DNA of 64,000 nt from Escherichia coli. Its GTDB lineage: Bacteria; Pseudomonadota; Gammaproteobacteria; Enterobacterales; Enterobacteriaceae. The notes beneath the pieces were generated by a model. The model made no database searches, was not told the origin of the DNA, and saw only the letters and a program-made list of their open reading frames with translations. The DNA is taken from assembly GCF_030013205.1 (NCBI RefSeq), contig NZ_CP122648.1. One strand, written 5' to 3'. The translations under genes were made by a program, and so were the position numbers. Below are positions 2,535-60,493 of the stretch, in pieces; within the stretch, counting starts at the first letter, position 1; each line of letters begins with the position of its first letter.

Positions 2535-4934
2535 ATGAAGCTAACCGATGCGGATAATGCCGCCGATGGCATTTTTTTCCCCGCCCTTGAGCAAAATATG
2601 ATGGGCGCGGTGTTAATTAACGAAAATGATGAAGTGATGTTTTTCAACCCCGCCGCAGAGAAGCTCTGGGGGTACAAACGTGAAGAAGTTATTGGCAATA
2701 ACATTGATATGCTGATTCCGCGGGATTTGCGTCCCGCGCATCCTGAATACATCCGTCACAACCGTGAAGGCGGTAAAGCGCGCGTCGAGGGGATGAGTCG
2801 GGAGCTGCAGCTGGAGAAAAAAGACGGCAGTAAAATCTGGACCCGTTTTGCGCTATCGAAAGTGAGCGCCGAGGGGAAAGTTTATTACCTGGCGCTGGTA
2901 CGGGATGCCAGCGTAGAAATGGCGCAAAAAGAACAGACCCGACAATTGATTATTGCCGTTGACCATCTCGACCGACCAGTGATTGTCCTCGATCCGGAAC
3001 GCCATATTGTGCAGTGCAATCGTGCATTTACCGAAATGTTTGGTTACTGCATTAGCGAAGCCAGCGGTATGCAGCCCGATACACTCCTGAACATTCCAGA
3101 ATTCCCTGCTGATAACCGCATTCGTTTACAACAGTTGCTATGGAAAACCGCCCGCGATCAGGACGAATTTCTGCTGTTGACGCGCACCGGTGAAAAAATC
3201 TGGATTAAAGCCTCTATCAGCCCGGTCTATGATGTGCTCGCGCATCTGCAGAACCTGGTAATGACTTTCTCGGATATCACCGAAGAACGGAAAATCCGCC
3301 AGCTTGAAGGCAATATTCTCGCCGCCATGTGCAGCAGCCCGCCATTTCATGAAATGGGGGAAATTATTTGTCGTAACATCGAATCTGTACTCAACGAATC
3401 GCATGTTTCGCTGTTCGCGCTGCGCAACGGGATGCCGATACACTGGGCGTCATCTTCGCACGGTGCAGAAGTTCAAAATGCGCAAAGCTGGTCAGCGACC
3501 ATTCGTCAGCGTGATGGTGCGCCTGCGGGGATCCTGCAAATTAAAACCTCGTCAGGAGCAGAAACCAGCGCCTTTATCGAACGCGTGGCAGATATCAGCC
3601 AGCATATGGCCGCGCTGGCGCTGGAACAGGAAAAAAGCCGTCAGCATATTGAACAACTCATCCAATTTGATCCGATGACCGGTCTGCCAAATCGCAATAA
3701 CCTGCACAATTACCTCGATGACCTGGTCGACAAAGCCGTCTCTCCGGTGGTCTATCTCATCGGTGTTGACCATATTCAGGATGTGATTGATAGCCTTGGC
3801 TATGCGTGGGCCGATCAGGCATTGCTGGAAGTGGTCAATCGCTTTCGTGAAAAACTCAAACCGGATCAGTATCTCTGTCGTATCGAAGGTACGCAGTTTG
3901 TCCTCGTGAGCCTCGAAAACGACGTCAGTAACATTACCCAGATCGCCGATGAGCTACGGAATGTGGTCAGCAAGCCGATAATGATTGATGATAAACCATT
4001 CCCGCTTACCTTGAGTATTGGCATCAGCTACGACGTGGGTAAAAACCGCGATTACCTGCTCTCCACTGCTCACAATGCAATGGATTATATTCGCAAAAAT
4101 GGCGGTAACGGCTGGCAGTTCTTCAGCCCGGCGATGAACGAAATGGTAAAAGAGCGTTTGGTTTTAGGCGCGGCGCTGAAAGAAGCAATTAGCAATAACC
4201 AACTGAAACTGGTTTACCAGCCACAAATCTTCGCAGAAACGGGTGAACTGTACGGCATCGAAGCCCTTGCTCGCTGGCACGATCCCCTGCATGGTCATGT
4301 GCCCCCTTCACGGTTTATTCCTCTCGCAGAAGAGATCGGTGAAATCGAAAATATTGGACGCTGGGTCATCGCGGAAGCTTGCCGTCAGTTAGCAGAATGG
4401 CGTAGCCAGAATATTCATATCCCGGCGTTATCCGTTAACTTGTCGGCGTTGCACTTTCGCAGTAATCAGCTGCCTAATCAGGTGTCTGATGCAATGCACG
4501 CCTGGGGTATTGACGGCCACCAGCTGACGGTGGAAATCACGGAAAGCATGATGATGGAACACGATACCGAAATCTTTAAGCGCATTCAGATCCTGCGCGA
4601 TATGGGCGTGGGTTTATCGGTAGATGATTTTGGCACGGGCTTTTCCGGATTATCCCGCTTAGTCAGTCTTCCGGTAACGGAAATCAAAATTGACAAAAGT
4701 TTTGTCGATCGTTGTCTGACCGAAAAACGCATCCTTGCCTTACTTGAAGCCATTACCAGCATTGGGCAAAGCCTTAATTTAACCGTCGTGGCGGAAGGCG
4801 TCGAAACCAAAGAGCAATTTGAGATGCTACGCAAGATCCACTGTCGCGTTATTCAGGGATATTTATTTTCCCGCCCCCTGCCCGCCGAAGAAATTCCAGG
4901 CTGGATGAGCAGTGTGTTACCGCTGAAAATCTGA
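2535..4934 (+). CDS. dosP: Heme-regulated c-di-GMP phosphodiesterase DosP (PAS-PAS-GGDEF-EAL), 799 aa
   Basis: ORF in frame from ATG 2535 with GAGG RBS at 2526-2529; EAL domain at C-terminus; the ORF-track start 2511 is an upstream in-frame ATG without RBS. Confidence 0.9.
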   Translation: MKLTDADNAADGIFFPALEQNMMGAVLINENDEVMFFNPAAEKLWGYKREEVIGNNIDMLIPRDLRPAHPEYIRHNREGGKARVEGMSRELQLEKKDGSKIWTRFALSKVSAEGKVYYLALVRDASVEMAQKEQTRQLIIAVDHLDRPVIVLDPERHIVQCNRAFTEMFGYCISEASGMQPDTLLNIPEFPADNRIRLQQLLWKTARDQDEFLLLTRTGEKIWIKASISPVYDVLAHLQNLVMTFSDITEERKIRQLEGNILAAMCSSPPFHEMGEIICRNIESVLNESHVSLFALRNGMPIHWASSSHGAEVQNAQSWSATIRQRDGAPAGILQIKTSSGAETSAFIERVADISQHMAALALEQEKSRQHIEQLIQFDPMTGLPNRNNLHNYLDDLVDKAVSPVVYLIGVDHIQDVIDSLGYAWADQALLEVVNRFREKLKPDQYLCRIEGTQFVLVSLENDVSNITQIADELRNVVSKPIMIDDKPFPLTLSIGISYDVGKNRDYLLSTAHNAMDYIRKNGGNGWQFFSPAMNEMVKERLVLGAALKEAISNNQLKLVYQPQIFAETGELYGIEALARWHDPLHGHVPPSRFIPLAEEIGEIENIGRWVIAEACRQLAEWRSQNIHIPALSVNLSALHFRSNQLPNQVSDAMHAWGIDGHQLTVEITESMMMEHDTEIFKRIQILRDMGVGLSVDDFGTGFSGLSRLVSLPVTEIKIDKSFVDRCLTEKRILALLEAITSIGQSLNLTVVAEGVETKEQFEMLRKIHCRVIQGYLFSRPLPAEEIPGWMSSVLPLKI

Positions 4935-4946
4935 CAAATTCCTCTC

Positions 4947-4970
4947 GCCCGCACTCGCGGGTTTTCATTT
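4947..4970 (+). terminator. Putative intrinsic terminator after dosP (short GC stem cccgc/gcggg followed by TTTTCATTT)
   Basis: Inverted repeat plus T-run seen 13 nt after dosP stop. Confidence 0.45.
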
Positions 4971-5131
4971 AACGTGACACTGTCACTTAAATACTGTGAT
5001 TTCAGCTACGATTCCGGGAGATTCCTTCCTTAACTTCCCCTCTTGCACCAAAACTGCACTACGCTGCACAAATGTTGATCAAAAGTTAAAAAATATAACT
5101 TTAAGCCAGCATTCTGGCGCTTATCCCGGCA

Positions 5132-5147
5132 TGGCATGAGATCTGCA
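5132..5147 (+). promoter_or_regulatory. Candidate sigma-54 (-24/-12) promoter TGGCAT-N5-CTGCA upstream of ddpX
   Basis: Sequence tggcatgagatctgca matches TGGCAC-N5-TTGCA consensus with 2 mismatches, about 45 nt upstream of ddpX ATG. Confidence 0.5.
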
Positions 5148-5191
5148 TAAGCGGAAAGCGCAGCAATTTTTGTCTTATACAGGAACTGTTT

Positions 5192-5773
5192 ATGTCGGAT
5201 ACCACCGAACTGGTTGATTTAGCCGTGATCTTCCCTGATCTGGAGATCGAACTGAAATACGCCTGCGCTGATAACATCACAGGTAAAGCTATTTATCAGC
5301 AAGCGCGTTGTCTGTTACACAAGGATGCGATTACCGCGCTGGCGAAAAGTATCAGTATCGCCCAGCTGTCAGGCTTACAACTGGTGATTTACGATGCGTA
5401 TCGCCCACAACAAGCACAGGCGATGTTGTGGCAAGCCTGCCCAGACCCGCAATATGTTGTTGATGTGGCGGTCGGTTCTAATCACAGCCGTGGCACGGCG
5501 ATCGACCTGACGCTTCGTGATGAGCACGGGAACATCCTGGATATGGGTGCAGAGTTCGATGAAATGCACGAACGTTCCCATGCTTATCACCCTTCCGTCC
5601 CGCCCGCCGCTCAGCGCAATCGGCTGTTGCTGAATGCGATTATGACTGGCGGTGGCTTTGTCGGTATCCCGAGCGAATGGTGGCACTTCGAATTACCCCA
5701 GGCAGCGAGTTACCCACTACTCGCTGATCAATTCACCTGTTTTATATCCCCTGGCACACAGCACGCCAGTTAA
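5192..5773 (+). CDS. ddpX: D-alanyl-D-alanine dipeptidase DdpX (VanX homolog), 193 aa
   Basis: ORF translation; zinc dipeptidase motifs; first gene of ddp operon. Confidence 0.92.
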   Translation: MSDTTELVDLAVIFPDLEIELKYACADNITGKAIYQQARCLLHKDAITALAKSISIAQLSGLQLVIYDAYRPQQAQAMLWQACPDPQYVVDVAVGSNHSRGTAIDLTLRDEHGNILDMGAEFDEMHERSHAYHPSVPPAAQRNRLLLNAIMTGGGFVGIPSEWWHFELPQAASYPLLADQFTCFISPGTQHAS

Positions 5774-5786
5774 TCAGGAAACTGTC

Positions 5787-7337
5787 ATGAAGAGATCGAT
5801 ATCGTTTCGTCCTACATTGCTCGCGATCGTCCTTGCCACAACAATGCCGGTTGCGCACGCCGCCGTACCGAAAGATATGCTGGTGATCGGTAAAGCTGCC
5901 GACCCACAAACCCTCGACCCGGCGGTAACAATTGATAATAACGACTGGACAGTGACCTACCCGTCTTATCAGCGACTGGTTCAGTACAAAACGGACGGTG
6001 ATAAAGGCTCAACCGACGTTGAAGGCGATCTGGCTAGTAGCTGGAAAGCGTCTGACGATCAAAAAGAGTGGACGTTCACCCTGAAGGACAATGCTAAATT
6101 TGCCGATGGCACACCTGTCACTGCCGAAGCAGTAAAACTCTCTTTTGAGCGGTTACTAAAAATCGGCCAGGGGCCAGCAGAAGCATTTCCCAAAGATTTA
6201 AAGATTGATGCTCCCGACGAACATACAGTGAGGTTTACCCTTAGCCAGCCATTCGCACCGTTCCTCTACACGCTGGCGAATGACGGTGCATCCATTATCA
6301 ATCCGGCGGTCTTAAAGGAGCATGCGGCGGATGATGCCCGTGGTTTCCTCGCGCAAAATACCGCTGGCTCCGGACCGTTTATGCTGAAAAGCTGGCAAAA
6401 AGGTCAGCAATTAGTTCTGGTGCCAAATCCGCATTACCCCGGCAATAAACCGAATTTCAAACGGGTATCGGTAAAAATTATCGGTGAAAGTGCTTCCCGT
6501 CGCCTGCAGCTCTCCCGTGGCGACATTGACATTGCCGATGCGCTGCCGGTGGATCAACTCAACGCACTGAAGCAGGAAAACAAAGTCAATGTGGCAGAGT
6601 ATCCGTCACTGCGCGTCACCTATCTGTATCTGAATAACAGCAAAGCGCCACTTAATCAGGCGGATCTGCGTCGGGCCATTTCCTGGTCTACCGATTATCA
6701 GGGTATGGTTAACGGCATTCTGAGTGGTAACGGAAAACAAATGCGCGGCCCGATTCCGGAAGGCATGTGGGGATACGATGCGACGGCAATGCAATACAAC
6801 CATGACGAAACGAAAGCCAAAGCCGAATGGGATAAAGTGACGAGCAAACCCACCAGCCTGACGTTTCTCTATTCTGATAATGATCCGAACTGGGAGCCCA
6901 TTGCTCTGGCGACACAATCCAGTCTCAACAAGCTGGGCATCAATGTGAAGCTGGAAAAACTGGCGAACGCCACCATGCGCGACAGAGTGGGTAAAGGTGA
7001 TTACGACATCGCGATTGGCAACTGGAGTCCGGATTTTGCCGACCCGTATATGTTTATGAATTACTGGTTTGAGTCAGACAAAAAAGGTCTGCCGGGTAAC
7101 CGCTCGTTCTATGAAAACAGTGAGGTCGATAAGTTACTGCGCAATGCGCTAGCGACCACCGACCAGACGCAGCGTACCCGGGACTACCAGCAGGCACAGA
7201 AAATCGTCATTGATGACGCTGCTTATGTGTACCTGTTCCAGAAAAACTACCAACTGGCGATGAACAAAGAGGTGAAAGGCTTTGTGTTCAATCCCATGCT
7301 GGAACAGGTCTTCAATATCAATACCATGAGTAAATAA
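5787..7337 (+). CDS. ddpA: Periplasmic D,D-dipeptide-binding protein DdpA (516 aa) with signal peptide
   Basis: Internal ATG at 5787 gives MKRSISFRPTLLAIVLATTMPVAHA signal peptide; the ORF-track start 5652 overlaps ddpX and is rejected. Confidence 0.9.
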   Translation: MKRSISFRPTLLAIVLATTMPVAHAAVPKDMLVIGKAADPQTLDPAVTIDNNDWTVTYPSYQRLVQYKTDGDKGSTDVEGDLASSWKASDDQKEWTFTLKDNAKFADGTPVTAEAVKLSFERLLKIGQGPAEAFPKDLKIDAPDEHTVRFTLSQPFAPFLYTLANDGASIINPAVLKEHAADDARGFLAQNTAGSGPFMLKSWQKGQQLVLVPNPHYPGNKPNFKRVSVKIIGESASRRLQLSRGDIDIADALPVDQLNALKQENKVNVAEYPSLRVTYLYLNNSKAPLNQADLRRAISWSTDYQGMVNGILSGNGKQMRGPIPEGMWGYDATAMQYNHDETKAKAEWDKVTSKPTSLTFLYSDNDPNWEPIALATQSSLNKLGINVKLEKLANATMRDRVGKGDYDIAIGNWSPDFADPYMFMNYWFESDKKGLPGNRSFYENSEVDKLLRNALATTDQTQRTRDYQQAQKIVIDDAAYVYLFQKNYQLAMNKEVKGFVFNPMLEQVFNINTMSK

Positions 7338-7338
7338 C

Positions 7339-8361
7339 GTGACCTTCTGGAGTATTTTACGCCAACGCTGCTGGGGGCTGGTGCTCGTGGTGGCGGGCGT
7401 CTGTGTGATTACGTTTATTATCTCGCACCTGATCCCCGGCGATCCGGCGCGGTTACTGGCGGGTGACCGCGCCAGCGATGCTATCGTGGATAATATTCGC
7501 CAGCAACTGGGACTGGACCAGCCACTGTACGTACAGTTTTACCGCTACGTCAGCGACCTGTTTCAGGGTGACCTGGGAACATCCATTCGTACCGGGCGTC
7601 CGGTGCTGGAAGAGTTGCGCATATTTTTCCCGGCGACGCTGGAACTGGCTTTTTGTGCCCTGCTGCTGGCACTCCTGATTGGCATCCCGCTGGGCATACT
7701 CTCTGCAGTCTGGCGAAATCGCTGGCTGGATCATCTGGTGCGAATAATGGCCATTACCGGAATCTCCACACCTGCGTTCTGGCTTGGGCTGGGCGTCATT
7801 GTGCTGTTTTATGGTCATCTGCAAATTCTTCCCGGCGGCGGAAGGCTTGATGACTGGCTGGATCCACCAACGCACGTTACCGGCTTTTATCTGCTCGATG
7901 CGCTGCTTGAAGGTAACGGTGAAGTCTTCTTCAATGCGCTGCAACATCTCATCTTACCGGCATTAACGCTGGCGTTCGTTCACCTGGGGATTGTCGCTCG
8001 CCAGATCCGCTCAGCTATGCTGGAACAATTGAGTGAAGACTACATTCGTACCGCCCGGGCCAGCGGCTTGCCCGGCTGGTATATCGTTTTATGTTATGCG
8101 CTACCCAATGCGTTGATCCCCTCGATTACCGTATTGGGACTGGCGTTGGGCGATTTGTTGTATGGCGCAGTGCTCACCGAAACCGTTTTTGCCTGGCCCG
8201 GAATGGGTGCATGGGTAGTAACATCAATACAGGCGCTCGACTTCCCGGCAGTGATGGGCTTTGCCGTCGTGGTTTCATTTGCTTATGTGCTGGTGAACCT
8301 GGTGGTGGATTTGCTCTATTTGTGGATTGATCCGCGTATCGGACGTGGAGGTGGTGAATGA
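7339..8361 (+). CDS. ddpB: ABC transporter permease DdpB (340 aa), GTG start
   Basis: ORF translation, polytopic membrane protein of OppB/DppB type. Confidence 0.88.
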   Translation: MTFWSILRQRCWGLVLVVAGVCVITFIISHLIPGDPARLLAGDRASDAIVDNIRQQLGLDQPLYVQFYRYVSDLFQGDLGTSIRTGRPVLEELRIFFPATLELAFCALLLALLIGIPLGILSAVWRNRWLDHLVRIMAITGISTPAFWLGLGVIVLFYGHLQILPGGGRLDDWLDPPTHVTGFYLLDALLEGNGEVFFNALQHLILPALTLAFVHLGIVARQIRSAMLEQLSEDYIRTARASGLPGWYIVLCYALPNALIPSITVLGLALGDLLYGAVLTETVFAWPGMGAWVVTSIQALDFPAVMGFAVVVSFAYVLVNLVVDLLYLWIDPRIGRGGGE

Positions 8362-9254
8362 TGCTAAGCGAGGAAACGTCCGCCGTACGCCCACCAAAAC
8401 AAACGCGATTTAACGGTGCAAAACTGGTATGGATGCTGAAAGGCAGCCCGCTTACCGTGACCGGCGCAGTCATCATTGTATTAATGCTACTGATGATGAT
8501 TTTTTCACCGTGGCTGGCGACGCATGATCCCAACGCCATTGATTTAACCGCCCGCCTTTTGCCGCCTTCTGCGGCGCACTGGTTTGGCACCGATGAAGTG
8601 GGACGCGATCTGTTTAGCCGCGTACTGGTCGGCAGTCAGCAATCAATTCTCGCCGGATTAGTGGTAGTCGCCATTGCAGGTATGATGGGGTCGCTACTCG
8701 GGTGTCTATCCGGTGTGCTTGGCGGACGCGCAGACGCGATTATCATGCGCATCATGGACATTATGCTGTCGATTCCTTCGCTGGTGCTGACAATGGCACT
8801 GGCAGCCGCTCTCGGGCCGAGTTTGTTTAACGCCATGCTGGCGATTGCTATTGTGCGAATTCCCTTTTATGTGCGCCTGGCGCGGGGGCAAACATTAGTT
8901 GTTCGCCAGTATACCTATGTTCAGGCGGCGAAAACCTTTGGTGCGTCACGCTGGCATCTGATCAACTGGCATATTTTACGTAACTCCCTGCCGCCGCTGA
9001 TTGTGCAGGCATCGCTGGATATCGGTAGCGCGATTTTAATGGCCGCCACGTTGGGATTTATTGGCCTGGGTGCTCAACAACCGAGTGCTGAATGGGGGGC
9101 GATGGTGGCGAATGGTCGCAACTATGTACTCGATCAGTGGTGGTATTGCGCATTTCCGGGGGCAGCGATTTTGCTTACCGCCGTCGGGTTTAATCTCTTT
9201 GGTGATGGTATTCGCGATCTGCTTGACCCGAAAGCAGGAGGAAAGCAGTCATGA
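8358..9254 (+). CDS. ddpC: ABC transporter permease DdpC (298 aa); start overlaps ddpB stop (ATGA)
   Basis: ORF translation, DppC-type permease. Confidence 0.88.
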   Translation: MMLSEETSAVRPPKQTRFNGAKLVWMLKGSPLTVTGAVIIVLMLLMMIFSPWLATHDPNAIDLTARLLPPSAAHWFGTDEVGRDLFSRVLVGSQQSILAGLVVVAIAGMMGSLLGCLSGVLGGRADAIIMRIMDIMLSIPSLVLTMALAAALGPSLFNAMLAIAIVRIPFYVRLARGQTLVVRQYTYVQAAKTFGASRWHLINWHILRNSLPPLIVQASLDIGSAILMAATLGFIGLGAQQPSAEWGAMVANGRNYVLDQWWYCAFPGAAILLTAVGFNLFGDGIRDLLDPKAGGKQS

Positions 9255-10237
9255 CCCAACCCGTTCTGGACATTCAACAACTGCATTTGAGTTTCCCCGG
9301 TTTTAACGGTGATGTTCACGCGCTCAACAATGTGTCATTGAAAATCAACCGCGGTGAAATTGTCGGTCTGGTGGGAGAATCCGGCTCGGGTAAATCAGTC
9401 ACTGCAATGTTGATTATGCGTCTGCTACCGACGGGCAGTTATTGCGTACATCGGGGACATATTTCACTGCTGGGAGAAGATGCTCTTAACGCTCGGGAAA
9501 AACAGCTTCGTCAGTGGCGCGGCGCACGAGTGGCGATGATCTTTCAGGAACCGATGACCGCCCTTAATCCGACACGTCGAATAGGTCTTCAGATGATGGA
9601 CGTGATCCGCCATCATCAACCAATAAGTCGTCGGGAAGCCAGAGCTAAAGCGATTGCCCTGCTGGAAGAGATGCAAATCCCGGATGCCGTGGAAGTTATG
9701 TCGCGCTATCCGTTTGAGCTTTCAGGTGGTATGCGCCAGCGGGTAATGATTGCGCTGGCATTCTCCTGCGAGCCGCAGTTGATTATTGCCGACGAACCGA
9801 CTACGGCGCTGGACGTCACGGTACAGTTGCAGGTACTGCGTCTGCTTAAACATAAAGCCCGCGCCAGTGGAACTGCGGTACTGTTCATCAGCCATGATAT
9901 GGCCGTGGTGTCGCAACTGTGCGATAGCGTTTACGTGATGTATGCCGGAAGCGTGATTGAAAGCGGCGTGACGGCAGACGTTATCCATCATCCCCGGCAT
10001 CCGTATACCATTGGTTTGCTGCAATGCGCACCGGAACATGGAATACCGCGCCAGCCATTACCCGCCATTCCAGGGACGGTACCAAACCTCACCCATTTGC
10101 CTGACGGCTGCGCTTTTCGCGATCGTTGCTATGCGGCAGGTGCACAGTGTGAAAACGTCCCGGCGCTGACAGCGTGTGGTGACAACAACCACCGCTGCGC
10201 CTGTTGGTATCCTCAGCAGGAGGTCATTAGTGTCTGA
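9251..10237 (+). CDS. ddpD: ABC transporter ATP-binding protein DdpD (328 aa)
   Basis: Walker A GESGSGKS, ABC signature LSGGMRQR. Confidence 0.9.
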   Translation: MTQPVLDIQQLHLSFPGFNGDVHALNNVSLKINRGEIVGLVGESGSGKSVTAMLIMRLLPTGSYCVHRGHISLLGEDALNAREKQLRQWRGARVAMIFQEPMTALNPTRRIGLQMMDVIRHHQPISRREARAKAIALLEEMQIPDAVEVMSRYPFELSGGMRQRVMIALAFSCEPQLIIADEPTTALDVTVQLQVLRLLKHKARASGTAVLFISHDMAVVSQLCDSVYVMYAGSVIESGVTADVIHHPRHPYTIGLLQCAPEHGIPRQPLPAIPGTVPNLTHLPDGCAFRDRCYAAGAQCENVPALTACGDNNHRCACWYPQQEVISV

Positions 10238-11156
10238 CACGTTATTAACGTTACGCGACGTCCATATCAATTTCCCTGCCCGAAAAAACTGGCTTGGTAA
10301 AACTACGGAACATGTTCATGCCATCAATGGTATTGATTTACAGATCCGTCGTGGTGAAACCTTAGGGATCGTCGGTGAGTCAGGCTGCGGCAAAAGCACC
10401 CTCGCACAGCTTTTAATGGGTATGCTGCAACCGAGCCACGGGCAGTACATCTGTTCAGGATCACAACGCATTATGCAGATGGTGTTTCAGGACCCGCTCT
10501 CTTCGCTTAATCCGCGCTTACCGGTGTGGCGCATCATCACGGAACCGCTCTGGATTGCTAAGCGTAGTAGTGAACAACAGCGGCGAGCGTTGGCAGAGGA
10601 GCTGGCTGTGCAGGTGGGTATTCGTCCGGAGTATCTCGACCGCTTGCCTCATGCGTTCTCAGGCGGGCAGCGGCAACGTATCGCCATTGCCAGAGCACTC
10701 TCTTCGCAGCCTGACGTGATTGTGCTTGATGAACCAACCTCGGCGCTGGATATCTCCGTGCAGGCGCAGATCCTCAATTTACTGGTAACGCTACAGGAAA
10801 ATCGCGAGCTGACTTATGTGCTGATTTCACACAATGTCTCCGTGATACGTCATATGAGCGATCGGGTGGCGGTGATGTATCTCGGACAGATTGTGGAACT
10901 AGGAGACGCGCAACAGGTGCTGACAGCTCCGGCACATCCATACACCCGATTATTGCTGGATTCCCTCCCCGCCATTGATAAACCGCTGGAGGAAGAATGG
11001 GCATTACGTAAAACGGATCTACCAGGAAACCGCACGTTGCCACAAGGCTGTTTTTTCCGCGAACGCTGCCCTTTGGCAACCCACGGATGTGAAGTCCGGC
11101 AATCATTAACAATAAGGGAGGACGGACGTGAGATCCGGTGCTGGCGGGCGCTGTAG
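10230..11156 (+). CDS. ddpF: ABC transporter ATP-binding protein DdpF (308 aa), GTG start overlapping ddpD end
   Basis: Walker A GESGCGKST, signature FSGGQRQR; GTG at 10230 gives the expected 308 aa length. Confidence 0.85.
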   Translation: MSDTLLTLRDVHINFPARKNWLGKTTEHVHAINGIDLQIRRGETLGIVGESGCGKSTLAQLLMGMLQPSHGQYICSGSQRIMQMVFQDPLSSLNPRLPVWRIITEPLWIAKRSSEQQRRALAEELAVQVGIRPEYLDRLPHAFSGGQRQRIAIARALSSQPDVIVLDEPTSALDISVQAQILNLLVTLQENRELTYVLISHNVSVIRHMSDRVAVMYLGQIVELGDAQQVLTAPAHPYTRLLLDSLPAIDKPLEEEWALRKTDLPGNRTLPQGCFFRERCPLATHGCEVRQSLTIREDGREIRCWRAL

Positions 11157-15892: not shown

Positions 15893-16546
15893 TTATATCC
15901 CTTCTTCACTCTCTTTTTTCGCTTCTGCCTTCTCGATTTCACGATACCAGCGCGGATGGTGTTTCTTCGCCCAGCGACGGCTCACCTTCCCTTCGATCAT
16001 CCCTTTAATCGATCCTTTCACCCAGAAAGCCATATACATATGGATCAGGATGGCGTGGATCAGGATGATACCCGCAGCCGCATGGATCAGCAGGCTATAA
16101 CGGACAACCTGTATCGGGAAGTACTGCGCAAAGTACGGACGCCAGATAATCACCCCGGTCACCAGCAGCACGAAAATCATGCTCATGATTGACCAGAACA
16201 TCATCTTTTGCCCGGCGTTGTACTTACCGACATCCGCCACTTTGTGCTCATTGCCTTTTAATACTTCGACAATGTTCAACAGCCACGGAATATCTTTCTT
16301 ATCCGGGATGTTGTGATGCACAAAACGCACAAACATAAACATCAGCGCGACGAAAATCGCAATGCCGAAGAACGGGTGCAAAATGCGTCCCATCTGCGGC
16401 GTACCGAAGGTTTGCGTCAGCCATTGCAGCGTCGGGAAGAAGAACGAAATCCCGGACAGCGCCACCAGGAAGAAGCAAATCACCACGGTCCAGTGACAGG
16501 CGCGATCAATAAATTTGGTGCGCACAATCATTTTCGACTTACTCAT
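15893..16546 (-). CDS. fdnI: Formate dehydrogenase-N cytochrome b556 gamma subunit FdnI (217 aa)
   Basis: ORF translation from [12 protein letters not shown]...; 4-TM heme b protein. Confidence 0.9.
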
Positions 16547-17435: not shown

Positions 17436-20400
17436 TTACGCCTTCTCGATGTTGACTAAGAACGCTTTATATTCCGGCGTTTGCGAGTTTGCATCACCGA
17501 CATTCGGCGTCAGAGTGTTAGCGATATAACCTTTACGCGCGACACCCTCAAAGCCCCAGTGGATTGGAATACCCACCGTTTCAACCTGCTGACCGTTTAC
17601 ATTCAGCGGTTTCAGACGGCGCGTTACCACCGCCACCGCGCGGATAAAGCCACGCTTGCTTGAGACAGTGACACGATCGCCATTATTAATGCCTTTCGCC
17701 GCCGCCAGCGTTTCGCTGATTTCCACAAACTGTTCCGGCTGAGCAATTGCGTTGAGCAACGCGTGCTTGGTCCAGGTGTGGAAGTGCTCGGTCAGACGAT
17801 AGGTCGTACCCACATACGGGAACTGCTCTTTTTTACCCATCCGCAGCGCGTCTTGTTCATACAGACGAACGACCGGGTTAGACACCACGTTCGGATGCAG
17901 CGGGTTAGTGCCCAGCGGCGTTTCAATTGGCTCGTAGTGTTCCGGGAACGGACCTTCCGCCATTTTGTTGATGGCAAACAGGCGTCCCATCCCTTCCGGC
18001 TGCATGATAAACGGCCCGGTTGGCGTACCCGGCGCGGCATTGCCGAAGTCCGGAATATCGTTACCCGTCCACTTGCTGCCGTTCCACTGGATCAGCATCC
18101 GTTTCGGATCCCACGGTTTACCGCTGATATCCGCCGAAGCACGGTTGTAGAGTACGCGACGGTTGAGCGGCCACGCCCAGGCCCATCCCAGCGTATTCCC
18201 CAGACCGGACGGGTCGGAGTTATCGCGGTTAGCCATCTGGTTGCCCTGCTCTGTCCAGCTACCGGTGTAGATCCAGCAAGACGATGCGGTTGTACCGTCA
18301 TCACGCAGATGCGCAAAGCTACTCAGCAACTGACCTTTCTTCGCAATCAGCACGCCATTAGCATCATAGAGATCTTCCAGCGCATAGCCGTTATTCTCTT
18401 TCGCCACTTCGTCAGACTGCGGTTCGTGCGGCTGCTTGTAGTTCCAGCTCATCTTCATCAGCGGTTCTACGCCTTTACCACCTTCGGCCTGGTACAGCTC
18501 GCGCAGATGATGGTAGATACCCGCCAGAATTTCGCCGTCGTTACGCGCTTCGCCCGGCGCATCCTGACCTTTCCAGTGCCACTGCAACCAGCGACCGGAG
18601 TTAGCGATAGAACCATCTTCTTCAGCAAAGCAGGTCGAAGGCAGACGGAATACCTCAGTCTGAATAGACGCCGGATCGACATCGTTCGACTCGCCGTGGT
18701 TCTGCCAGAAGGTAGAAGTTTCAGTCACCAGCGGATCGATAACCACCATGTACTTCAGCTTGCTCAGGCAGCTCACCACTTTGTTTTTGTCCGGGAAGGA
18801 CGCAACCGGGTTAAAGCCCTGGCAGAAATAACCGGTGACTTTGCCTTCATCCATCATGTTGAAATACTTGATGACGTCGTAGGTCTGGTCCCACTTAGGC
18901 AGCCAGTCGTAGCCCCAGTTGTTCTCTTTCTGCGCGGCATCGCCGTAGAAAGATTTCATCAGGCTAACGAAGAACTTCGGATAGTTGCTCCAGTAGTTCA
19001 CCTGATCAGCCAGCGTCGCTTTCGGCGTGTTCGCTTCCAGATACGACTGCAAATCAACCTGTTTTTCTGACGGCAGCGTCAGATAACCTGGCAGGCTGGT
19101 AGAGAGCAGGCCTAAGTCAGTCAGGCCCTGAATGTTGGAGTGACCACGCAATGCGTTCACGCCGCCACCAGCCATACCCATGTTACCGAGCAGCAATTGG
19201 ATCATCGCCATGGTGCGGATGTTCTGCGCACCCACGGTGTGCTGCGTCCAGCCCAGCGCGTACAGGAAGGTGGTGGTGCGATCCGGCGCGCTGGTGGAGG
19301 CCAGCACTTCACACACTTTCAGGAAGTCGGCTTTTGGCGTACCGCAGATGTTTTCTACTACATCCGGCGTGTAGCGGGAAACGTGCTCTTTCAGCAGGTT
19401 CCACACACAGCGCGGATGAGTCAGTGTTTCATCGCGTTTCGCATAGCCGTTTTCATCGAACTGATAGTTCCAGGACGATTTATCGTACTGGCGTTTTTCA
19501 GCGTCGTAGCCGCTGAACAGACCGTCTTCGAAAGCAAAATCATCACGCACCAGCAGGCTGGCATTGGTGTAATGCTTAACGTATTCGGCATTGATTTTGT
19601 TGTTTTCGATCAGGTAGCGCAAAACGCCAGACAGGAACGTAATGTCCGTACCGGAACGAATAGGTGCGTAAATATCCGCTACAGAAGCGGTACGCGTAAA
19701 ACGGGGATCGACAACGATCAAGGTTGCATCGTTGTTGTTTTTCGCTTCCATCGCCCAGCGGAAACCGACGGGATGCGCTTCAGCAGCGTTACCGCCCATC
19801 ACCATCACGACGTTAGCGTTTTTGATATCCACCCAGTGGTTGGTCATCGCACCGCGACCAAATGTTGGAGCAAGACTTGCTACCGTTGGTCCGTGTCAGA
19901 CGCGCGCCTGGTTGTCTACCGCCAGCATCCCGAGGGAGCGGGCAAATTTCTGGGTCAGCATCCCGGTTTCGTTGCTGGCACCGGAGGCACACAGCATACC
20001 GGTAGAAAGCCAACGGTTTACCGTTACGCCCTGCTCGTTCTTTTCAATAAAGTTAGCGTCACGGTCAGCTTTCATCAGCTTCGCAATACGGGAGAATGCT
20101 TCTTCCCAGCTAATGCGCTGCCATTTGTCAGAACCTGGCGCACGATATTCCGGGTAGCGCAGACGGTTTTCGCTGTTGACGTAATCCAGCAAACCGGCCC
20201 CTTTCGGGCACAGCGCACCACGGCTTACCGGATGATCCGGGTCACCTTCAATGTGATAAATCGCTTCTCTGGCGTTTTTCGCGCCATCACCCAGGCTATA
20301 CATCAATAGCCCGCAACCTACGGAACAGTATGTGCAGGTGTTACGGATCTCTTTAGCGCGTAATAATTTGTAGTTTCGCGCCTGAGCCAGTGCTTGCTTT

Positions 20401-59465: not shown

Positions 59466-59749
59466 TACCGTTGTCTCTCTTCCAGGTTTACTCCTGATAG
59501 AAAGTCATCGGCACTTGACGGTAATTTCTTACGACCAAAAACCTCTTTGCGTCACATTTTTACAACAATTATGGCAGAGAAGAATAATGCCATTGGAATG
59601 AAGAGAGTAACGAATGATTAAACTGGCTAAACCGAATGACGAAAAATTCTGGAAAACAGCACGCAATTTCGTGAAGTGATTATTTTCGTCCCTAAGGAAA
59701 CCTCATAGGATGCCTGCGGGTGCCTGAGACTTTCTGTTTTCAGGCTAAC

Positions 59750-59805
59750 CGGGAATCAGAAAGACGAAGGCCCCGACCGATATTTCTATCAACCGAGGCC
59801 AACGA

Positions 59806-59815
<10 letters not shown>
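59750..59815 (-). ncRNA. sokB: Probable SokB antisense RNA region of the hokB/mokB/sokB type I TA locus (coordinates approximate)
   Basis: Inferred from the hok/sok architecture (antisense overlapping the mok start); not directly delimited. Confidence 0.3.
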
Positions 59816-60013
<198 letters not shown>

Positions 60014-60084: not shown

Positions 60085-60258
60085 TCAGTTAGTGCATGTT
60101 TTTTTCGATGCACTAATAGAACCATCATTACAGACAAATTTGCCGCCTGCCGTACAGTGTGAGATCCCCCCTTTCGAACCAGAACAGGGTTTGCGCCCGG
60201 CATCGGCATAAAAGGAAACAAGCGTTCCCATAAACAAGATAAGTGCCAGTTTTTTCAT
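60085..60258 (-). CDS. ydcA: Small Cys-rich lipoprotein-like protein YdcA (57 aa)
   Basis: Hand translation MKKLALILFMGTLVSFYADAGRKPCSGSKGGISHCTAGGKFVCNDGSISASKKTCTN with GGAGG RBS. Confidence 0.7.
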   Translation of the reverse strand: MKKLALILFMGTLVSFYADAGRKPCSGSKGGISHCTAGGKFVCNDGSISASKKTCTN

Positions 60259-60428: not shown

Positions 60429-60493
60429 CTTCCGATGTAGACCCGTATTCTTCGCCTGTACCACGGGTCGGTTTTAGTACAGGCGTTTTCTTT
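60429..60493 (+). ncRNA. rydC: Hfq-dependent small RNA RydC (about 65 nt) ending in an intrinsic terminator
   Basis: Sequence cttccgatgtagacccgtattcttcgcctgtaccacgggtcggttttagtacaggcgttttcttt recognised from memory as RydC; terminator hairpin cctgtac/gtacagg plus T-run; convergent with cybB. Confidence 0.6.

Follow-up and report, generated by a model that had tools for sequence, protein, structure and literature searches.

A documented sigma-54 promoter of the Escherichia coli ddpXABCDF operon and a conserved upstream block that is probably its NtrC enhancer

What controls the ddpXABCDF operon of Escherichia coli from the 257-bp spacer that separates it from dosP, and is the same control region used by related bacteria? 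We examined these questions in a 64,000-nucleotide stretch of an E. coli chromosome (hereafter the window), in which the genes are arranged in the order digH-dosC-dosP-ddpX-ddpABCDF-osmC. A first-pass annotation of this DNA had proposed a sigma-54 promoter in front of ddpX and control of the operon by nitrogen limitation through NtrC. This proposal is right, but it is not new, because a sigma-54/NtrC promoter of ddpX is already documented. Indeed, the literature and databases already cover the promoter together with the sigma factor and activator it uses, as well as its physiological role in D-Ala-D-Ala scavenging during nitrogen starvation. The comparative results given below concern the upstream sequences and the history of this control region.

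Gene annotations were taken from a RefSeq genome that is 99.9% identical to the window over positions 1–30295. This genome is not colinear with the window past 30.3 kb, and therefore its annotation was used for 1–30295 only. The adjoining segment of about 1.8 kb (30296–32121) carries an IS91-family transposase gene (ORF 30703–31935, with Y2_Tnp and Zn_Tnp_IS91 domains). Relative to strain CFSAN018748, this IS91-type segment replaces the region from the middle of narZ through the 5′ part of pqqU/yncD, such that narZ is truncated near position 30295 and about 25.6 kb of CFSAN018748 (narH through yncE) is absent from the window. No terminal inverted repeats were found for the 30296–32121 segment, as expected for IS91-type elements.

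The features of the control region and the operon are collected in Table 1. A hairpin located just past dosP isolates ddpX from dosCP read-through, and the two overlapping terminator-like matches at this location compare with 0.3 expected in shuffled sequences. The ddpABCDF genes overlap or are tightly packed, which is consistent with their co-transcription with ddpX. A search against Rfam gave no RNA family in the dosP-ddpX spacer. Elsewhere in the window, matches above the gathering threshold were obtained for the SECIS element in fdnG (19843–19901, minus strand), the sok antitoxin RNA of a hok/sok locus (59718–59869, plus strand), and the sRNA RydC (60429–60492, plus strand). The spacer also includes a near-perfect palindrome at 4969–4991 (TTAACGTGACA-C-TGTCACTTAAA), about 170–190 nt upstream of the predicted ddpX transcription start, which is retained in two other Escherichia loci (L003 and L004). 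Its core, GTGAC-N3-GTCAC, is a misfit to CRP spacing, and a TGTGA-containing sequence is present at a similar place in Citrobacter and Enterobacter.

Table 1. Sequence features of the ddpX control region and operon, in window coordinates
Feature	Position	Strand	Basis or remark
Terminator-like GC hairpin and T-run	4944–4962	+	Just past the dosP stop (4934)
Conserved block TGCACCAAAACTGCACTACGCTGCACAAATGTTGATCAAAAGTTAA, about -114 to -69	5044–5089	+	18-taxon alignment
Sigma-54 -24/-12 element ATGGCATGAGATCTGCA (ddpXp)	5131–5147	+	Matrix score, identity to OS16, orthologous sites
Predicted transcription start	5158	+	12 nt past the C of the -12 GC; equals NC_000913.3 1563110
Shine-Dalgarno AGGA	5181–5184	+	7 nt before the ddpX ATG; read from the sequence
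ddpX, D-Ala-D-Ala dipeptidase (Peptidase_M15), first gene of the operon	5192–5773	+	PF01427, E = 5.9e-79
ddpABCDF, D,D-dipeptide ABC transporter	5787–11156	+	RefSeq annotation of the near-identical genome

The sequence TGGCATGAGATCTGCA at 5132–5147 of the plus strand is composed of TGGCAT (5132–5137), the spacer GAGAT (5138–5142), and CTGCA (5143–5147). Between the GG at 5133–5134 and the GC at 5145–5146 there are 10 bp, which is the canonical spacing of a sigma-54 -24/-12 element, and the two mismatches to TGGCACG-N4-TTGCA both fall at tolerated positions. The coordinates and the geometry assigned at first pass, TGGCAT-N5-CTGCA with correct spacing, are thus as read from the sequence, and its estimate of about 45 nt between the element and ddpX becomes 44 nt when the bases before the ATG are counted. 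The site is intergenic and in sense orientation, and its distance from the start codon is typical. The predicted transcription start gives a leader of 34 nt, in agreement with the 34-nt distance listed in Table 1 of Bonocora et al., whose rule places the start 19 bp from the motif centre (PMC4591121). This length falls inside the range of about 18–100 nt reported for the leaders of validated sigma-54 sites (PMC4591121). No mapped 5′ end for ddpX was found in the literature searched.

The motif is not rare enough to be convincing by its sequence. TGGCAY-N5-YTGCW occurs once in the 64-kb window compared to 0.61 occurrences expected, and at least one match was present in 40 of 100 shuffles. A 17-column weight matrix was built from 41 intergenic-sense sigma-54 ChIP-seq motifs (Bonocora et al. 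2015), with the ddpX site left out. On this leave-one-out matrix the ddpX site scores 15.9 bits, a mid-range value that ranks 22nd of 42 among the ChIP-validated sites. Matrix scoring, the check proposed with the first-pass annotation, places the site at the top of both strands of the real window (runner-up, 13.8 bits), though shuffled windows contain on average 0.54 sites of at least 15.9 bits, and 41% of them have at least one. By itself, the ddpX motif is therefore within what chance would produce, and the case for a promoter rests on position, experiment, and conservation.

Several lower-scoring sequences in the window also deserve mention. The next-best sigma-54-like sequences include ATGGGACGCATTTTGCA (16377–16393, minus strand, 13.8 bits), which lies inside fdnI, and CTGGCACTTATCTTGTT (60233–60249, minus strand, 13.7 bits), which lies near rydC. 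Both strings are missing from the main text and tables of Bonocora et al. (PMC4591121). The sequence TCGGCATGAATATTGCG (33368–33384, plus strand, 12.3 bits) is identical to the intragenic ChIP-seq site IS18 in yncD/pqqU, a fairly strong sigma-54 site with a fold-above-threshold value of 23 (PMC4591121). The 64-kb window thus holds two sigma-54 sites for which binding has been observed experimentally, this one and that of ddpX.

Conservation was assessed with 80 ddpX loci from one scan of species-representative genomes, which include Escherichia, Citrobacter, Enterobacter, Lelliottia, Franconibacter, Mixta, Pantoea, Erwinia, Serratia, Raoultella, Brenneria, and others. In 69 of these loci, a sense sigma-54 site scoring 12 bits or more lies at most 250 nt from the first gene of the operon, with a median spacing to the start codon of 57 nt. 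The same search found none on the antisense strand (0/80) and none in the coding control (0/80). The 35 distinct sites all have TGC, and all have TGGCA apart from one locus at which a neighboring site was picked; the spacer positions 7–13 vary freely. Invariant contact bases around a varying spacer are the signature of selection for sigma-54 binding, and this comparison shows the sigma-54 promoter to be an old feature of the ddp operon. When the search is restricted to the 300 nt next to ddpX itself, sites that reach 12 bits are found only at the two Escherichia loci and three others.

Experimental evidence is available for the K-12 strain. The dosP-ddpX spacer of the window is identical to that of K-12 MG1655 at 256 of 257 positions, and the motif corresponds to NC_000913.3 1563137–1563121 on the minus strand. 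Because the spacers are nearly identical, published experiments on K-12 apply directly to the window. By sigma-54 ChIP-seq, Bonocora et al. (2015) identified site OS16, which is exactly ATGGCATGAGATCTGCA upstream of ddpX (b1488), with a fold-above-threshold value of 10 and a predicted start 34 nt from the gene (PMC4591121). The ddpX promoter was listed as “predicted” in EcoCyc at that time, 2015 (PMC4591121). The ddpX-dos spacer was also recovered by genomic SELEX with RpoN holoenzyme, and gel shifts revealed binary complexes with NtrC and with the holoenzyme as well as a ternary complex with both (Shimada et al. 2021; PMC8743547). In the same study, ddpX mRNA increased by 104.5-fold on nitrogen depletion, and the authors concluded that the operon requires both RpoN and NtrC (PMC8743547).

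Binding of NtrC to this region in nitrogen-starved cells was reported by Brown et al. (2014), whose ChIP-seq peak at NC_000913.2 1561101–1561181 is assigned to ddpXABCDF (PMC4066584) and corresponds to window positions 5110–5190. NtrC peaks in that data set adjoin or cover the sigma-54 motif also at glnK, glnH, gltI, rutA, astC, and yeaG, and so the position of the ddpX peak does not locate the enhancer. A 2010 paper had already summarized the operon as induced by nitrogen limitation, preceded by a potential sigma-54 promoter, and serving D-Ala-D-Ala scavenging, and cited two earlier papers.

Taken together, the OS16 ChIP-seq site, the RpoN-holoenzyme SELEX and gel-shift results, and the 17-mer identical in K-12 bear out the sigma-54 promoter proposed at first pass, and its suggestion of NtrC control under nitrogen limitation agrees with the NtrC peak, the NtrC gel shift, and the strong induction in K-12. 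We conclude, with a probability of roughly 0.93, that ddpXp, the sigma-54 promoter of E. coli ddpXABCDF, has its -24/-12 element at bases 5131–5147. The earlier papers cited in the 2010 summary are said to be Zimmer 2000 and Reitzer & Schneider 2001. The element is the same as ddpXp of K-12 (b1488; EcoCyc/RegulonDB, OS16) in another strain, given that the 17-mer, the gene order, and the distance to ddpX are the same. The one difference is a T/C change at window position 5187, which lies between the Shine-Dalgarno sequence and the ATG, outside the promoter.

Where does NtrC act at this promoter? An alignment of the 125 nt upstream of the -24 element from 18 taxa (Escherichia, Citrobacter, Enterobacter, Franconibacter, Huaxiibacter, and Mixta) revealed the block at 5044–5089 as the sole conserved island besides the -24/-12 element, with the remainder of the region diverged. 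The block includes three TGCAC sequences that begin at 5044, 5055, and 5065, 10–11 bp apart, and has a conserved TTGATCA-N3-GTTAA at its 3′ end. Its distance to the -24 element falls into three classes: 68–70 nt in Escherichia and one MAG labelled Pantoea, 78–81 nt in 27 Citrobacter/Enterobacter-type loci, and 88–93 nt in Mixta, Franconibacter, and one MAG. These classes differ in steps of about 10–11 bp, or about one helical turn. In Huaxiibacter chinensis (L039), the block carries a 10-bp tandem duplication (CTGCACTACG twice) that creates a fourth TGCAC and keeps the 10-bp phase.

A search with the NtrC consensus TGCACCA-N3-TGGTGCA was calibrated on K-12 promoters. The glnAp2 boxes were recovered at -140 (13/14) and -108 (12/14), and good boxes were also found at glnH and nac. 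The best matches were 10/14 at -87 for glnK and 10/14 at -142 for rutA, and there was no match of at least 10/14 at gltI, yeaG, or argT, with none of at least 9/14 at yeaG. For ddpX, matches were located at -106 (9/14), -95 (9/14), -85 (10/14), and -45 (9/14). By chance, a stretch of 214 nt would contain about 0.55 matches of at least 9/14, and the overlapping ddpX matches at -106, -95, and -85 are individually weak. No canonical NtrC palindrome of at least 11/14 is present at ddpX. The enhancer search proposed at first pass thus yields a cluster of weak 9–10/14 sites between about -106 and -85, but not a strong canonical palindrome. An inverted repeat at 5105–5119, GCCAG-N5-CTGGC, was considered and set aside; it matches the consensus at 9/14 (17-mer 5105–5121) and is confined to Escherichia, with no conservation elsewhere. 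At the equivalent position in more distant genera, near-canonical NtrC boxes can be recognized by eye, including TGCACCGATTTTGTGCA in locus L050 and TGCACTTTCTTTGTGCA in Raoultella.

Judged from its sequence, the block at 5044–5089 is a conserved, correctly placed, NtrC-like element that matches the NtrC box weakly. It is probably the NtrC enhancer, and NtrC would presumably contact bases within it. The 3′ end of the block is possibly a bend or an IHF-type element. A specific IHF site in TTGATCAAAAGTTAA was not accepted, because inspection by eye places it one base off the register of WATCAA-N4-TTR, and it amounts to speculation. Overlapping the TGCAC block is CTTGCACCAAAACTGCA (5042–5058), which scores 12.9 bits on the sigma-54 matrix and ranks fourth in the window, with TG in place of GG at -24. 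We rejected this sequence as a second sigma-54 promoter because it is without the essential GG and is part of the conserved TGCAC block, but it might be the source of the extra holoenzyme bands seen with the Shimada ddpX probe.

Comparison with known promoters helps to place ddpXp. It shares with glnAp2, the archetypal NtrC-activated promoter, the -24/-12 geometry and NtrC-dependent activation from upstream, and its several putative NtrC sites are spaced such that they too would lie on the same helix face. However, glnAp2 has two strong palindromic NtrC boxes at -140 and -108, whereas ddpXp has TGCAC direct repeats of 9–10/14 that are closer to the promoter, at -106 to -85. ddpXp can also be compared with the low-affinity Ntr promoters glnK, rutA, argT, and yeaG, which are likewise NtrC ChIP-seq targets with sigma-54 ChIP-seq motifs and whose NtrC boxes are weak or unrecognizable. 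Unlike the upstream regions of these four promoters, the ddp enhancer block has its own sequence that is conserved across genera. The weak, clustered NtrC-like sites suggest that activation occurs only at high NtrC-P, i.e., under severe limitation.

Three other explanations for these observations were considered. One is that the motif arose by chance and that sigma-54 binds there with no consequence for transcription, which may also be true of many intragenic sigma-54 sites. Its frequency is indeed compatible with chance, and Bonocora et al. stress that binding is no proof of promoter function (PMC4591121). However, 69 of 80 loci keep the site at the 5′ end of the operon, where it varies only at noncontact positions, and the roughly 100-fold induction on nitrogen depletion is attributed to RpoN and NtrC by the authors who observed it (PMC8743547). 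Furthermore, no alternative promoter was detected: a simple -35/-10 consensus scan found no sigma-70-type promoter at 4850–5250, and the sigma-70 holoenzyme SELEX table has only an internal ddpA/ddpB promoter for the operon and nothing upstream of ddpX. This explanation is effectively refuted already. It is also quite improbable that the sigma-54 promoter is real but that another enhancer-binding protein, or an architectural protein such as IHF, acts at the upstream block in place of NtrC or together with it. Such an activator would fit the arrangement of TGCAC as direct repeats rather than inverted TGCACC-N5-GGTGCA, the consensus match of 9–10/14, and the conserved TTGATCA-N3-GTTAA, which is without counterpart in an NtrC box. 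Against such an activator stand the NtrC ChIP-seq peak (PMC4066584) and the NtrC gel shift and RpoN-plus-NtrC requirement (PMC8743547). Moreover, the NtrC ChIP-seq targets gltI, yeaG, and argT likewise have no matches of at least 10/14, and the near-canonical boxes seen by eye in L050 and Raoultella occupy the equivalent position.

The third explanation accepts the sigma-54 promoter and adds a second promoter in the spacer, dependent on sigma-S or sigma-70, that accounts for stationary-phase expression. Lessard et al. reportedly described RpoS-dependent stationary-phase expression of ddpX in 1998, which would imply a second input. The consensus scan and the SELEX table speak against such a promoter upstream of ddpX. 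Also, extra holoenzyme bands could stem from CTTGCACCAAAACTGCA, and induction in stationary phase could be an indirect effect of nitrogen exhaustion. We therefore consider a second promoter unlikely, although less so than either a different activator or a chance motif.

With the sigma-54/NtrC promoter as the preferred reading, we propose the following sequence of events. Sigma-54 RNA polymerase would bind at 5131–5147 as a closed, inactive complex, in line with the occupancy observed by ChIP-seq in K-12. When nitrogen becomes limiting, NtrC-P would bind upstream, where binding to the region has been demonstrated, and would presumably use the TGCAC block at 5044–5089 by assembling on one face of the helix. 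As in the established mechanism of sigma-54 activators, NtrC is expected to oligomerize, loop the DNA to contact the polymerase, and open the promoter with ATP; looping may be aided by the A/T-rich or IHF-like segment at 5076–5105. Transcription from near the predicted start would then yield the 34-nt leader followed by the coding regions for the D-Ala-D-Ala dipeptidase and the ABC importer. The outcome would be the salvage of D-Ala-D-Ala as a source of nitrogen and carbon.

Most other genera organize this region differently. About 15 nt upstream of ddpX, on the same strand, they have a gene of about 288 aa that encodes an RpiR-type HTH domain (PF01418). The arrangement was observed among loci L005–L081, at about 2046–2125 and 2120–2986 (e.g., L006 and L018). 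A strong sigma-54 site of 13–18 bits, for example ATGGCACGCGTCCTGCA, is located upstream of the rpiR-like gene. Of the 73 loci having a sigma-54 site, 59 also carry a TGTTA-N5-7-TAACA palindrome, compared to a background of 0.005 per equivalent stretch. It begins 1–3 nt after the -12 element in 51 loci, and in the other 8 the gap is 18 nt. The Escherichia loci and L038 (a MAG), in which no gene separates the promoter from ddpX, do not have the palindrome. Most simply read, TGTTA-N6-TAACA is presumably the operator of the RpiR-like regulator, and the two are probably a repressor-operator pair that forms a second layer of control.

The sigma-54 site of these rpiR-like-ddpXABCDF operons (Citrobacter, Enterobacter, Serratia, Pantoea, and others) is orthologous to that of E. 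coli, as is the enhancer block in the closer genera. In these operons the promoter precedes the regulator gene and is accompanied by the palindrome, whereas in Escherichia both are missing and the promoter abuts ddpX. The simplest reading of this distribution is that Escherichia lost the regulator gene and its operator, thereby joining the promoter to ddpX. We looked for a remnant of this gene in the E. coli leader. There is colinear similarity to the 3′ end of the rpiR-like gene, but it is not significant (shuffle p of about 0.04–0.5 per species), and hence the proposed 3′ remnant was rejected. A 12-mer in the leader matches the 5′ part of the gene. Because the leader similarity is not significant, deletion of the rpiR-like gene is no more than a plausible reading. 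On balance, we lean slightly toward the view that ddpXp is a derived and simpler form of a control region ancestral to the Enterobacterales, from which the RpiR-like gene and the palindrome were lost, leaving NtrC in sole control from an enhancer that is one helical turn closer and is a non-canonical array of direct-repeat NtrC sites.

Some E. coli strains lack the region altogether. The enhancer-promoter segment (5030–5195) is present at 95% identity or more in 4274 of 5426 complete E. coli genomes. The promoter region is absent from about 21% of complete genomes (1152/5426), and in three genomes without the segment (H10–H12) homology to the window ends at about 5010–5013. In ATCC 25922 (L083), dosP is followed directly by osmC, with ddpXABCDF and its control region missing, and dosC is a pseudogene. 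In E. coli CAVP880 (H26, NZ_CM176323.1), the match to the promoter region begins at query base 43 (window 5072) and dosC adjoins ddpX in the annotation, which suggests a strain-specific rearrangement that removed dosP and part of the enhancer block.

What the comparative results add to the documented biology is that the promoter is ancient and under selection across the Enterobacterales, and that the conserved enhancer block could guide footprinting. They further suggest that most relatives have a second, RpiR-type layer of control, which was lost from E. coli. This layer would be relevant when the regulation of peptidoglycan-dipeptide salvage in E. coli is extrapolated to other enteric bacteria.
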